Source: Ottowia sp. (GTDB taxonomy: Bacteria; Pseudomonadota; Gammaproteobacteria; Burkholderiales; Burkholderiaceae_C). From it: 64,000 bases of DNA. Shown in pieces: positions 38,727 through 63,545 of the stretch. The notes beneath the pieces are model-generated. The model saw nothing but the letters and a program-made list of their open reading frames with translations, was not told the origin of the DNA and did not search any database. Made by a program: the position numbers and the translations under genes. Location of the stretch: the NCBI RefSeq assembly GCF_047601385.1, contig NZ_JASGJP010000001.1, forward strand, positions 466,487-530,486, written 5' to 3'. Numbering within the stretch: the first letter of the stretch is position 1; each line of letters opens with the position of its first letter.

Positions 38727-38863
38727 CACCCCCTGTCGGCCCGCATCTCGCCCACCTGCCGAGAAACACCGGCATTGCGCCGGGCCGCCTCGGTGCGCGT
38801 CCAGTCGAGCACATCAACGCCCAAGCTCAGCGGGTGCCGCAGGCGGTCTATTAGAGTGAAGAG

Positions 38864-39181
38864 TCAGACCGCAGAGGCATCCCGAAAAGCGCGAAGAACA
38901 GAGTTGATCCGCGTCTGGTAGCCAGCGCCTTGTGCCTTGAACCACTCAATAACGTCCTGGTCAATGCGCAGCGAGATCAGTTCCTTATTGGGAACTGGCG
39001 CAAGCCCGCGCCGGACGATGCCGCGAACGATGTGATCCGGGTCGAACTCGGGATGCTCTTGAGACGGTTGGGCCTGGGTGTTGGGCGACATGAGCTGGGG
39101 CCAGTCAGTTCTGGACTTGGCTGAAGAAGAAGCGCGCTTCTCGATCGGTTGCTTTGCGGAAGGAGATGATGCGGATTTCAT
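38864..39181 (-). CDS. brnA: BrnA-family antitoxin (start uncertain)
   Basis: SRTDW..; ISLRIDQDVIEWFKAQGAGYQTRINSVLR. Confidence 0.88.
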   Translation of the reverse strand: MKSASSPSAKQPIEKRASSSAKSRTDWPQLMSPNTQAQPSQEHPEFDPDHIVRGIVRRGLAPVPNKELISLRIDQDVIEWFKAQGAGYQTRINSVLRAFRDASAV

Positions 39182-39380
39182 CGTTGGTCTCCGTGTGAGC
39201 GATGGACACAGGCACCCCGGCCAGAAGGCCCAGCGTGACGAAGCGTTGTTCACCGTAGTCGAAGCGGTCATCCTCGTAGGTGAAGGTCAAGCCTTCAAAG
39301 ACGCGCGGTGCATCAACGAAATCAAGGCCATGATCCTTGAGATTGATCCCGCGCTTGCGCTCTGACCATGTGAAACGCAT
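39105..39380 (-). CDS. brnT: BrnT-family toxin
   Basis: FTWSERKR.IN.K.HGLDF..A..VF; YGEQRF; IRIISFRKA. Confidence 0.9.
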   Translation of the reverse strand: MRFTWSERKRGINLKDHGLDFVDAPRVFEGLTFTYEDDRFDYGEQRFVTLGLLAGVPVSIAHTETNDEIRIISFRKATDREARFFFSQVQN

Positions 39381-39386
39381 GCAGCA

Positions 39387-39398
39387 TTGTAGCTACAA
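39387..39398. promoter_or_regulatory. Palindromic operator overlapping the brnT -10 box
   Basis: Perfect TTGTAGCTACAA immediately upstream of brnT; minus-strand TACAAT. Confidence 0.65.
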
Positions 39399-39444
39399 GG
39401 CGTAGGTGCATCAAGGGCGGGGGATTCCTGCGACTCAAGGATTT

Positions 39445-39496
39445 AATTTTCATCTGACCCTGATTTCCTCAAATTTTCATCTGACCCTGATTTCCT
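39445..39496 (-). repeat. Two exact 25-bp direct repeats (27-bp period) of the AAATCAGGGTCAGAT site
   Basis: AATTTTCATCTGACCCTGATTTCCT at 39445-39469 and 39472-39496. Confidence 0.9.
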
Positions 39497-39667
39497 TCAG
39501 ACGTGGCCGGCCTGATCGACGCCGTGCACGTGAAAAATGTTCTTCGCCAGATCGATGCCAACGGTGGTAGCTTGCATGGGGGACGCTCCTGTCTGGATGA
39601 CAAGTGGTTGTTCGGACCTCCACTTTGGCTCTTCAGGGCCGATCAGGTGGGGGCGTCCATTCCATTA
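39497..39667 (-). mobile_element. IS110-family left-end remnant with a 26-codon transposase stub
   Basis: 39577-39497 translates to MQATTVGIDLAKNIFHVHGVDQAGHV* (IS110 N-terminal GIDLAK motif); upstream TAATGGAATGGACGCCCC resembles an IS1111-type end. Confidence 0.8.
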
Positions 39668-39731
39668 ATTACCCCGCTGATTTTCCCGCCCTGATTTCTC
39701 ATGACCCAAATTTCCCCCTGATTTTTCCTAG
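39668..39731 (-). repeat. Cluster of four degenerate GGAAAATCAGGG half-sites
   Basis: Minus strand: GGAAAAATCAGGG / GGAAATTTGGGTCA / GAGAAATCAGGGC / GGGAAAATCAGCGGGG. Confidence 0.7.
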
Positions 39732-39747
39732 TGGTTTGATGAACCGT

Positions 39748-40185
39748 TCAGGAGACATCAGGCCCTTGCTCCTTATTCCCTCGTGGCTGAGATAACAAGC
39801 TGGCCACAGCTGAAAAGGCCATGCTAGTCAACCAAAAATAGAAGCCTAAACCCACTGTATATGGAAAGTCTCCCGCGCTTCCAACTGGGATTGTGGTGCC
39901 GAGTGGAAACAATGCGGCCACGACGAGTGCCAATGAAGCGAGCATGAACCCTAAGCCAGGGTCTGTGCGCTTACCCCAAGCGAACCATAAAAGCACGTTG
40001 GCCAGCCAAGAAAAGTGGCCCGCAAATATGCCTATTGGCCCAAGTAGCAGTGCCTCAAGGCCGTAGTGGGGCTGTAGCTTCCCATAGTAGTCAGCAAAGT
40101 ACGCCGGAAACGCAAGGCTTGCTGCATACAAGCCAATGCTGAGCCAGCCGCACAACTGCGACAGAATTTGAGAGCGACGTCGCAC
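39748..40185 (-). CDS. Small multi-pass membrane protein of unknown function (lower GC)
   Basis: About four hydrophobic segments; AGGAG RBS before GTG (the track uses TTG at 40203). Confidence 0.75.
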   Translation of the reverse strand: MRRRSQILSQLCGWLSIGLYAASLAFPAYFADYYGKLQPHYGLEALLLGPIGIFAGHFSWLANVLLWFAWGKRTDPGLGFMLASLALVVAALFPLGTTIPVGSAGDFPYTVGLGFYFWLTSMAFSAVASLLSQPRGNKEQGPDVS

Positions 40186-40210
40186 GCGTCTCCTAACGGA
40201 CAAAGTAAGA

Positions 40211-40247
40211 GGGAAAATTAGGGAAAATTAGGGTCAGATCACAATTT
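40211..40247 (+). repeat. AAATCAGGGTCAGAT-type site with duplicated GGGAAAATTA
   Basis: GGGAAAATTA GGGAAAATTA GGGTCAGATCACAATTT. Confidence 0.8.
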
Positions 40248-40252
40248 ATTCC

Positions 40253-40717
40253 CTATGCCACGGCTTCCTCGGGTTCACTCTGGGTGTGTCCTACCCATTT
40301 GCCGCGCCGTTCGGTGGCGACCAACTTCTGGTTGCAGAGCCGGTCAACGGTGTTGATCCGGTCCAGAATTTCAGTGACCTTGCCGTTGCCCTTGAACTTC
40401 TCGAAGGCAACGATGCGCAGCAGGGCATCGGCCTGGGCGGGTACTCGGCCGGTTCTCTCCCACAGGGAGACGGATTGCTCGGTCGTCAGCAGCACGCGCT
40501 GCGCCAGCGACTGCTGCGACAGGCCCAGCAGCGTGCGCAGAAAGCGCAGCTCCTTGCCGGTGATGCGACCAGGCTTCTTGATGATCGACTGGGCGATGAC
40601 GAGGTGCAGGCCGTCGGTGTCTTCAATGGACACGCCTTTGCCGTAGGGCGTGCGGTGGATGGTGTAGCCGTTTTCCAGCCACACGTTGTCGAGGCCGGAT
40701 TCCGTGTAGTGGTACAT
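40253..40717 (-). CDS. HTH antitoxin-like regulator (MqsA/YgiT-like)
   Basis: MYHYTESGLDNVWLENGY..ELRFLRTLLGLSQQSLA..SVSLWER. Confidence 0.78.
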   Translation of the reverse strand: MYHYTESGLDNVWLENGYTIHRTPYGKGVSIEDTDGLHLVIAQSIIKKPGRITGKELRFLRTLLGLSQQSLAQRVLLTTEQSVSLWERTGRVPAQADALLRIVAFEKFKGNGKVTEILDRINTVDRLCNQKLVATERRGKWVGHTQSEPEEAVA

Positions 40718-40725
40718 GTCAGCTC

Positions 40726-41043
40726 TCATTCAATATAGAAGACCGTGACCATGATGACGTTGGGCGTGTCGTCGCTGATGGCCGCGACGACGCAGCAGTT
40801 GTGGCCTGAGCAGAAGTGCTCCATCCGGCACTCCAGTGTTCCCTTGTAGGTATTGGGCTCGGGAGTGCGCCGAATCACACCTCTGCGCAGACACTCGATG
40901 GCTACGTGCAGCGGCATCTTCCGATCCTTCATCTGCTTGCGGGCATGCGCGGTGATGATGACCTTTGCAGAATCGCCCGCCGCAGACCTGATGAGCTTCG
41001 CAAGCTGCGATTTCGATAGCGTGAAGACCGAGCCTGTGACCAT
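40726..41043 (-). CDS. DUF4258-like (RelE-superfamily) putative toxin
   Basis: IITAHARKQMKDRKM...IMVTVF; directly upstream of the HTH gene. Confidence 0.72.
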   Translation of the reverse strand: MVTGSVFTLSKSQLAKLIRSAAGDSAKVIITAHARKQMKDRKMPLHVAIECLRRGVIRRTPEPNTYKGTLECRMEHFCSGHNCCVVAAISDDTPNVIMVTVFYIE

Positions 41044-41070
41044 AAAATTTATGGGTTCATGGTACCCCAT

Positions 41071-41095
41071 AAATCAAGGGTCAGATCAAGATTTT
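41071..41095 (+). repeat. AAATCAGGGTCAGAT-type site at the right island boundary
   Basis: AAATCAAGGGTCAGATCAAGATTTT, next to the stop codon of the core lipoprotein gene. Confidence 0.8.
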
Positions 41096-41097
41096 TC

Positions 41098-59843: not shown

Positions 59844-60890
59844 TCAGTTCGCAATGTCCTGCGGCTGGGCCGCCTGCGCCAGCAGCAGGCCTCGCGCGGC
59901 GGTGCTGGCCGCGATGCGCCCCTCGGCCACGTCGGCCTGCAACTGCGGCAGCAGTGCCTTGACTCGCGGATGCGCGCGGAAGGCTTGTTTGAGCCCGGCG
60001 TCGATGCGCTCCCACATCCACGCCAGCGACTGCCGCTGACGCCGCTCGGCCAGCCGGCCGTTGGCGGCCTGAACGTCGCGGAAGCGGGTGACGGCGGACC
60101 AGAACGCATCCAGCCCCTCGCCCTTCAGGCCGCTGATCTGCATCACCTCCGGCTGCCACTGCGCGGCGGCGGCTTCGGCATGCGGGTCGCCCCGGGCCGG
60201 GTTGCCGTGCAGGCCGAACAGGCGCAGCGCCGACTGGATCTGCGCCCGCGCGCGCGTGGCGGCGGCGGGGTCGATATCGGCCTTGTTGATGACCACCAGG
60301 TCGGCCAGCTCCATCACACCCTTCTTGATGGCCTGCAAGTCGTCGCCGGCGTTGGGCAGTTGCAGCAGAACGAACATGTCGGTCATGCCGCTGACGGCGG
60401 TCTCGCTCTGGCCCACGCCCACGGTCTCGACCAGCACCACGTCGTAGCCGGCGGCCTCGCACACCAGCATGCTCTCGCGCGTCTTCTCGGCCACGCCGCC
60501 CAGCGTGCCGCTGCTGGGGCTGGGGCGGATGTAGGCGTGCTCGTGCAGCGACAGGCGCTCCATGCGCGTCTTGTCGCCCAGGATCGAACCGCCCGACAGC
60601 GTGGACGACGGGTCGATGGCCAGCACCGCCACGCGGTGGCCGCGCTCGATGAGGAAGAGGCCGAGCGTCTCGATGAAGGTGCTCTTGCCCACGCCCGGCA
60701 CGCCGCTGATCCCTAAGCGCAGCGCATGGCCGGTGTGCGGCAGCAGGGCCGTCAGCAGCTCGTCGCCCTGCGCGCGGTGGTCGGCGCGGGTCGATTCGAG
60801 CAGCGTGATGGCCTTGGCCATGGCGCGGCGCTGGGCGGCGGGCGTGCCGTGCAGGATGGCGTCGGTGCTTGCGACGGCAGGCAAAGTCAT
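59844..60890 (-). CDS. meaB: Methylmalonyl-CoA mutase-associated GTPase
   Basis: GISGVPGVGKST, AIDPSS, GSILGDKTRM, ETVGVGQSE, NKAD. Confidence 0.95.
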   Translation of the reverse strand: MTLPAVASTDAILHGTPAAQRRAMAKAITLLESTRADHRAQGDELLTALLPHTGHALRLGISGVPGVGKSTFIETLGLFLIERGHRVAVLAIDPSSTLSGGSILGDKTRMERLSLHEHAYIRPSPSSGTLGGVAEKTRESMLVCEAAGYDVVLVETVGVGQSETAVSGMTDMFVLLQLPNAGDDLQAIKKGVMELADLVVINKADIDPAAATRARAQIQSALRLFGLHGNPARGDPHAEAAAAQWQPEVMQISGLKGEGLDAFWSAVTRFRDVQAANGRLAERRQRQSLAWMWERIDAGLKQAFRAHPRVKALLPQLQADVAEGRIAASTAARGLLLAQAAQPQDIAN

Positions 60891-61300
60891 CGGCTCGGCT
60901 CCTCTGGTAGAGGCTCTTCCCCCCACCGTTCGGGCTGAGCTTGTCGAAGCCAGGGACCAGCCGCTGTCGTACCCTTTTGCCCTTCGACAGCGCCAGAGGA
61001 TGCGGGTGAACGGGCAAGGCCTGTGCGGGAACGCGCCAACTGCTGAATCGCGGCCCAGTCCCCACGGATCAGCGCTTCCTTCTTGGCTCGGGACCACCCT
61101 TTAATCTGCCGCTCGAATGCGATCGCGCCTTCGCGCGCCTCGAATTCGCCCTGCCAGAGCAATTCGACCGGCTTGCGCGTCGCGGTGTAGCCGATCAAGC
61201 CGTCAGCGTGCTGCCGCATGCGTAACTCTATATCGTCGGTTTGTCCTACGTAGTAAGACCCATCCGAACAACACAGCAGATAGACAAAGAAGGGTTTCAA
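60887..61300 (-). CDS. GIY-YIG nuclease (YhbQ/UPF0213-like) with repeat-derived tail
   Basis: FVYLLCCSDGSYYVGQT..RMRQH..ERQIKGWSRAKKEAL. Confidence 0.88.
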   Translation of the reverse strand: MKPFFVYLLCCSDGSYYVGQTDDIELRMRQHADGLIGYTATRKPVELLWQGEFEAREGAIAFERQIKGWSRAKKEALIRGDWAAIQQLARSRTGLARSPASSGAVEGQKGTTAAGPWLRQAQPERWGEEPLPEEPSR

Positions 61301-61346
61301 GCGATGGGGCGAGAAAGGGCTTCGACAAGCTCAGCCCGAACGGTGG
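60923..61346. repeat. Perfect 29-bp inverted repeats enclosing the GIY-YIG core
   Basis: CCACCGTTCGGGCTGAGCTTGTCGAAGCC (60923-60951) and its exact reverse complement (61318-61346); degenerate third copy near 60980-61013. Confidence 0.9.
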
Positions 61347-61385
61347 AGCATAAGCATCGCACGGGCAAGACGCGATACACCGAAG

Positions 61386-63545
<2,160 letters not shown>

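Follow-up and report, generated by a model that had tools for sequence, protein, structure and literature searches.

The DNA considered here is a window of 64,000 nucleotides (the whole stretch that was analysed) from Ottowia sp., and coordinates are positions in this window unless they are given as genome positions. At its centre of interest lies a low-GC island of 2.4 kb (38730-41097; GC 0.55-0.58 versus approximately 0.70 in the surroundings), flanked by an RNase T-like gene and an MlaD-like gene. The cargo of the island comprises a brnTA toxin-antitoxin pair, a small ORF without a Pfam family and a DUF4258/HTH gene pair, each separated by units of a short repeat that is treated below as a REP family. 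Wedged into the repeats are 167 bp of minus-strand DNA derived from an insertion sequence (IS) of the IS110 superfamily, consisting of the element's left end and the first 26 codons of its transposase gene (Table 1). Relative to a genome of the same genus (G020:C1:1816657-1823133), the island is situated exactly at an inversion/synteny break point, and the orthologous locus of that genome was found to possess neither an island nor a REP.

Table 1. Features of the low-GC island and their coordinates in the window.
Feature	Position	Strand	Remarks
brnT (39105-39380) and brnA (~38864-39092), toxin-antitoxin pair	38864-39380	-	PF04365, PF14384; beside the REP doublet
Two tandem REP-derived units with TTCAG tail	39445-39500	+	Units at 39445-39469 and 39472-39496; core TGATCTGACCC; the IS break abuts
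Stub ORF P0123	39497-39577	-	26 codons and TGA; residues identical to the N-terminus of copy A
IS1111-type left-end fragment	39501-39667	-	7-nt extension, subterminal inverted repeat, 5' UTR, first 25-26 transposase codons
Left subterminal inverted repeat ATGGACGCCCCC	39649-39660	-	Complement pairs 3 nt from the right end in L140 and L151
REP-arm half-sites and degenerate REP (39692-39716)	39668-39731	-	Left-side target of the IS; last arm ends ...GGGGTAAT at the terminus
151-aa ORF	39748-40203	-	No Pfam family; hydrophobic by eye
REP unit with two arm repeats	40213-40247	-	Between the HTH gene and the membrane ORF
HTH gene	40253-40729	-	Island cargo
DUF4258 gene	40726-41070	-	Paired with the HTH gene
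REP unit	41077-41094	-	Outer edge of the low-GC island

Arrays of a similar kind occur elsewhere. For example, a toxin-antitoxin array at genome positions 452,900-456,600 (L137), 10-14 kb upstream of the window start, carries genes for PIN, PemK/MazF, ParE (twice) and HepT with its MNT partner, between which nine co-oriented REPs are placed, and one of its ParE cassettes has been tandemly duplicated together with the REP. Low-GC arrays that combine Rhs-type/polymorphic-toxin C-terminal modules with small immunity-like ORFs, a co-oriented REP standing before each, were found in the same-genus genome mentioned above (L120; G020:C1:1223000-1233000) and at 57-65, 941-957, 1205-1216 and 2469-2488 kb of the Ottowia genome itself. 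A 790-bp segment, in which a REP is joined to the conserved 5' portion of an ORF whose family is unknown, is present about eight times in the latter.

The transposase stub and its edges

The reading frame of the stub starts with an ATG at 39577 on the minus strand and terminates with a TGA at 39499-39497; upstream of the ATG is a leader of approximately 90 nt that opens with a conserved block. A preliminary description of the sequence had noted that the stub ends at a stop codon with repeats immediately behind it, and that repeat sites adjoin the fragment directly at either end. Both points hold: the TGA is directly followed, on the minus strand, by two units that are exact 25-bp repeats, and the IS is separated from sites by 0-4 nt at its right and by nothing at its left, where four or five half-sites and one degenerate full site lie directly upstream of 39667.

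The right edge could be placed precisely by alignment with further IS copies from this genome (described below). Homology between the window and these copies spans approximately 39682 to 39501, and homology to the longest of them, copy A, breaks between 39501 and 39500. Past the break, copy A and a full-length relative read TGTCTTCAGC, where the window reads CTGA and then the repeat. Since the window leaves the copy A sequence before the TGA, the stop codon of the stub comes from the flank of the repeat; and since a repeat copy at genome position 456,580 is also trailed by CTTCAG, the gap between the IS and the repeat unit amounts to just 0-4 nt. The parent has CTTCAG where the window, beyond the break, has CTGAAG; this inverted match of 6 nt is too short to support any conclusion.

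It had also been suggested that the fragment may still bring in an IS promoter or non-coding region, and here the preliminary description was not borne out. No promoter was predicted in the stub, the sole sigma-70-like site between 38700 and 41200 being located at 39414-39386, downstream of the REP doublet and in front of brnT; its fold is unremarkable (z = -0.47), and an Rfam search of the stub returned no match. In the IS1111 family, moreover, the left end supplies at most the -10 half of the circle-junction promoter (PMC11187229). With the guide-RNA (seekRNA) region and the right end lost, and with no promoter, fold or Rfam match to its name, the stub is likely inert and devoid of function. 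The leader (39578-39667, minus strand) contains an inverted copy of the subterminal repeat that spans the ribosome-binding site and start codon and may form an occluding hairpin or represent a pseudo-right end. Solo units of approximately 95 nt situated between two such inverted copies, and resembling miniature derivatives, were seen in another genome (G090; L025, G090:C2).

The repeat sites and the RAYT gene

The repeat consists of a core, TGATCTGACCC, and A/T-rich arms. It was matched three times in the window against 0.19 expected, and 47 times genome-wide against a single match for a reversed-pattern control. Among 251 sampled genomes of the family it was found in 81, in up to 43 copies, and the copies that were inspected all lie between ORFs. 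The key to its identity is its association with a transposase gene: in another genus, two inverted copies bracket a gene for a 232-aa IS200-like Y1 transposase, and the Ottowia genome possesses exactly one PF01797 (Y1_Tnp) gene, which is likewise bracketed by inverted copies (locus L124, with sites at 1056-1090 and 1885-1910 around an ORF at 1171-1866 on the minus strand). Orthologs of this RAYT gene are present in 231 of the 251 genomes, usually singly. When the repeat scan was cross-read with the ortholog search, the repeat was within about 150 nt of the ortholog in 16 genomes; all twelve RAYT loci examined have a repeat nearby (on both sides in nine), and the repeat flanks the orthologous gene in more than 20 other genera. 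Because inverted copies bracket the genome's single RAYT gene, an arrangement by which RAYTs and their REPs are defined, the repeats can be regarded as RAYT-associated REPs, and on the evidence of sequence the sites in the window are shown to be diverged REP copies belonging to that single RAYT family.

The divergence is considerable. In other genera, the repeat folds cleanly into a hairpin whose stem measures 9-10 bp and whose loop measures 7 nt (-8 kcal/mol and z = -6.4 in L116), versus no fold (0 to -1.4 kcal/mol) in the four copies of the window, which keep the loop/core and are placed in the family by that shared core and not by structure. Inverted pairs about 66 bp apart, resembling REPINs, occur in REP-rich genera (L112, L114, L115; G055, G166), while tandem direct units and arm repeats predominate in the Ottowia genome. 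Compared with described REP/REPIN-RAYT systems (Nunvar 2010; Bertels & Rainey 2011, PMC3116915; Ton-Hoang 2012), the family has in common a single-copy, near-universal Y1 gene with inverted flanking repeats, a repeat that is also dispersed intergenically, and, in other genera, the clean stem-loop and the ~66-bp inverted pairs. It differs in that the Ottowia genome has only approximately 47 copies, most of which have kept the loop/core without the palindrome, arm repeats occur in tandem, there is no GTAG tag, and the copies are concentrated between toxin-antitoxin and polymorphic-toxin cassettes as opposed to being spread genome-wide.

Several other identities for the site were considered and rejected. 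A terminus of a Tn7-, Mu-, Tn3- or IS21-like DDE transposon does not fit, as the rve (PF00665) matches, also those near repeat clusters, belong to unrelated IS30-family and other rve-type IS copies, and the positions of these copies do not match those of the site clusters. A 1.2-kb IS5-family element (seven copies) is located directly beside a REP at genome positions 60,212-61,416; as a source of the repeat it was dismissed, having its own inverted repeats and being merely inserted alongside. A tyrosine-recombinase or integron site was rejected because PF00589 has no match within 100 kb of the window or of the repeat clusters and no attC (GTTRRRY) cores are present; site spacing and content are irregular. 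A promoter was discounted on the grounds that the genes are not oriented consistently with respect to the site.

Identity of the IS and its left junction

A BLAST search of the 4.0-Mb genome recovered four further left-end copies that are 88-98% (mostly 97-98%) identical to the window, and a motif search added two shorter left-end remnants to these five. Copy A, at 949 kb, reaches codon 181; its N-terminus is identical to the 26 residues of the window, and its 181 aa match PF01548 at 67.3 bits, through which the DEDD (RuvC-like) N-terminal transposase domain was recognised. There is no full-length copy in the genome. The right end is missing in all seven copies, the right inverted repeat was not found anywhere in the genome, and the 3' two-thirds of a relative, including its 3' non-coding region, has no match there. 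Transposase_20 and other C-terminal transposase fragments are absent from the window and from the whole genome, where tblastn with a full-length relative returned N-terminal pieces only. The window element is thus a fragment and not a complete IS1111 member.

Complete relatives had to be sought elsewhere. The protein collection contains a 348-aa transposase that is 96% identical (P0003) and further relatives at 85% (P0005) and 82%, and the C-terminal Transposase_20 domain is present in the full-length relatives L014 and P0003-P0006. The 82% relative was examined as DNA in a metagenomic, full-length element (L151), which is 90% identical to the window stub. Among species-representative genomes no close parent was found, the best proteins being 61-66% identical and the same-genus nucleotide match 74%; in named genomes, the transposases of the nearest relatives are 51-66% identical. 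Both L151 and a same-genus element (L140, from G276) have 12-bp subterminal inverted repeats with extensions of 7 nt at the left (TAATGGA) and 3 nt at the right (GTA), and a non-coding region of approximately 290-345 nt downstream of the gene (stop at 1589 and IS end at 1880 in L151; about 345 nt in L140). Subterminal inverted repeats of 11-13 bp, extensions of ~7 nt at the left and 3 nt at the right, and a downstream seekRNA region distinguish IS1111 from IS110 proper (PMC11187229). On the strength of the subterminal repeats, the 7-nt/3-nt extensions and the long downstream non-coding region of its relatives, the IS is shown, as far as sequence can tell, to be of the IS1111 type of the IS110 superfamily; what its own right end and right flank looked like is extrapolated from relatives that are 74-82% identical.

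The full-length relatives also define the left terminus, 7 nt outside the 12-bp subterminal repeat, and it falls at 39667, the very coordinate that the preliminary description had given. What lies beyond this terminus proved informative. The six independent left flanks of the genome all read GGGRAWAAT, that is, REP arms, and they differ among themselves far more than do the IS bodies, which are 97-98% identical; for this reason the flanks represent the target and not the IS. L151, for its part, is inserted between ...GAAT and TGGGGTCAGA, which corresponds to the boundary between the arm and the core of a REP belonging to the present family, with a canonical REP 40 nt downstream. Insertion is therefore seen at one target sequence and in one orientation, both in the six flanks and in L151, and the preference of the IS for REP arms as its insertion target is shown by these sequences. 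The possibility had also been raised that the parent IS continues into the supposed site, which would make the site part of the IS; it does so at neither end, as judged by the other copies and the full-length relatives, and the variability of the left flanks contradicts it as well.

REP-specific insertion is well known in the IS110 superfamily (PMC1525189, PMC12288879). ISPa11 of P. aeruginosa and ISPpu9 and ISPpu10 of P. putida (Tobes & Pareja 2006, PMC1525189; Siddiquee et al. 2024, PMC11187229; Pares-Guillen et al. 2025, PMC12288879) share with the present element the DEDD transposase, the subterminal repeats with 7-nt/3-nt extensions and downstream seekRNA region of its full-length relatives, and orientation-specific insertion at one REP position with no target duplication. 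The differences are that only the left 167 bp survive here, and that the REP belongs to a different family with the core TGATCTGACCC.

These observations bear on the idea, inherent in the preliminary description, that a dedicated site-specific acquisition system stored the IS fragment between two sites in the manner of a spacer or cassette. The fragment is indeed flush with sites on both sides, and the neighbouring genes are also separated by sites. The left junction is nonetheless the element's own targeted insertion, given that L151 occupies the same REP position and all six flanks are REP arms, and a natural IS terminus at its natural target calls for no capture process. Further, apart from unrelated IS copies there is no PF00589 or rve gene near the repeat clusters, the sites are the REPs of a widely conserved single-copy RAYT, and copies C, D and E are stubs that were propagated with neighbouring DNA, not captured anew. 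Storage by such a system is accordingly an explanation to which we attach almost no probability. The IS1111-attC group (ISPa21, ISKpn4, ISPst6) offers an instructive parallel, since in that case an IS lands in a cassette-separating site and so ends flush with sites; the sites of the island, by contrast, are not attC, have no R'/R'' cores and no PF00589 tyrosine-recombinase gene near their clusters, and are RAYT-owned.

The right junction and the origin of the relic

Unlike the left junction, the right one lies within the IS and probably reflects a second event. Under the target model, a REP core is predicted at the right of the element, yet a complete REP unit is found there, and deletion offers the simplest history. 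No remainder of the IS was found beyond brnTA or elsewhere in the genome, which makes an insertion of REP-led DNA into the IS the less parsimonious alternative. From this we infer that the right junction is a deletion and not an insertion.

The window is not alone in ending at a REP. Its break at codon 26 abuts a REP in the orientation of the natural right flank; copy A is broken at codon 181 and copies C, D and E, through one shared event, at codon 17, in both cases against a REP of opposite orientation; and a stub of a diverged IS in G020, of the same genus, is broken at codon 7 against a REP that again has the orientation of the natural right flank. Taken together, elements of this kind have been broken internally in four independent events, one of which took place in another species, and each time an intact REP unit adjoins the break with its outer edge, with 0-4 nt of filler in between. 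In G020, the IS sat in a different, GTAGG-type hairpin, and the REP abutting it is for this reason not the element's own target. REP edges are not the sole break points, as three further stubs (B, F and another in G284) terminate in DNA that is not a REP. The REP-rich genomes G055, G237, G166, G092 and G096 contain almost no IS110-family copies and are uninformative on the generality of the pattern.

Some further features of the breaks were recorded. On the IS side they read CACGT in the window (39501), CACG in copies C, D and E (genome position 2,473,403) and ATCG in copy A (948,555), and three cases are too few for a motif. Copy B (3,398,960; 88% identical) is cut within approximately 6 nt of the window break, at codon 27-28, with no REP adjoining, and the break region that it shares with the window may be a fragile point in the IS. 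At genome positions 2,988,471-2,988,500, 27 nt of the IS left end are fused directly to the conserved start of a toxin C-terminal module, CCGGCCTGAGCC, and the same module start also follows the REP after stub copy E. An IS30-family element is inserted in two of the IS stub copies (62,380-62,560 and 941,400-941,530).

Could such junctions have arisen by chance? An IS that sits in a repeat cluster may suffer a spontaneous deletion that happens to end beside a repeat, and the three stubs cut at non-REP positions, as well as the IS30 and IS5 hits at these loci, which speak of general instability, are in keeping with such erosion. Set against this is the fact that in four independent cases the break is 0-4 nt away from the outer edge of a unit of about 30 bp, an outcome with a chance of approximately 1 in 100 per hit for deletions ending within a few hundred bp of the cluster, and that one of the four occurred in another species and in a diverged IS. 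Random erosion is therefore considered very unlikely. The contention of the preliminary description that the fragment was trimmed in association with its sites, and not eroded at random, is upheld by the four REP-edge breaks; its companion claim of acquisition or spacer capture falls with the finding that the left edge is a natural terminus at its target.

The 3' cut, then, does not look random, and the recurrent junctions point to a REP-edge-anchored process that is possibly RAYT-mediated; they hint that repeat edges serve as break-and-join points. With a repeat edge as its constant end point and a second end point that shifts from case to case, the pattern is reminiscent of the adjacent deletions, anchored at transposon ends, that IS1, IS26 and Tn3-type intramolecular transposition produce. 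Here the anchor is a REP edge, and any enzyme involved would be a RAYT of the HUH/Y1 type, working on single-stranded DNA. A reaction in which RAYT cuts and rejoins DNA at REP edges is an attractive candidate for the cause, and resection blocked by a hairpin or a protein is the alternative. Loss of the hairpin in the REPs of the window weakens models that need RAYT recognition of structure.

A RAYT-type reaction could conceivably have worked the other way around, by joining REP-led DNA (the doublet, perhaps together with brnTA) into an intact IS through cleavage and ligation, the distal part of the IS being lost later. Such a course would account for whole REP units with constant outer edges at four different IS-internal positions and for the RAYT-REP in G020 that is not the IS's own target, and it would accord with the separation of toxin-antitoxin and toxin-immunity cassettes by REPs in several arrays and with the duplication of one ParE cassette and its REP. 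It encounters the difficulty that the remaining part of the IS is absent from the opposite side, and from the genome, in all four cases, each of which would need a second loss; in addition, no common target motif was apparent beyond CG before the break (n = 3), and REPIN mobility is known for inverted REP pairs and not for direct doublets. We regard it as rather unlikely.

The history that we consider probable is one of targeted IS1111 insertion into a REP cluster followed by deletion to a REP edge. A guide-RNA-directed element of the IS1111 type would have inserted into the RAYT-associated REP cluster by its normal site-specific mechanism, at the point where the REP arm (...AAT) meets the core. 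This would have been followed by a deletion that started at codon 27 and took with it the remaining transposase sequence, the downstream guide-RNA region, the right terminus and the half of the target REP split off by the insertion. The far end of the deletion would have lain at the outer edge of the next REP unit still intact, leaving the inert 167-bp relic behind. We infer this order of events, in which the REP edge presumably acted as an active or protected end, be it through a RAYT "adjacent deletion" or through hairpin- or protein-blocked resection. The model carries one extra assumption: as a complete REP unit and not a REP core follows the stub, the deletion must have passed the original right junction.

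A bolder proposal can be made from the same junctions, according to which REP edges are live recombination ends, where RAYT would cut on the outer side of a REP unit and rejoin the unit to DNA in the vicinity. RAYT would thereby trim REP-parasitic IS1111 elements, in a conflict or "immune" role, and would also shuffle the toxin-antitoxin and toxin-immunity cassettes between which the REPs lie. If this were true, the REP/RAYT pair would be an organiser of cassette arrays analogous to the integron, although we hold the proposal to be rather unlikely.

The object itself is an ordinary IS1111-type relic in a REP cluster, and the one thing about it that deserves further attention is that truncation at REP edges has recurred. 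Its value is first that of a marker, by which the "mystery sites" of the island are revealed as the REPs of a conserved RAYT, and no new capture system is therefore needed here. It also adds a new pairing of a REP family with an IS1111 element to the known cases of REP-targeting, guide-RNA-directed IS. To our knowledge, RAYT activity in cells has so far been very hard to observe, and natural junctions at REP edges are useful evidence for that very reason. The recurrent truncation of ISs at such edges may thus be taken as a hint, and one open to testing, that anchored deletions are produced in vivo by REP/RAYT systems.
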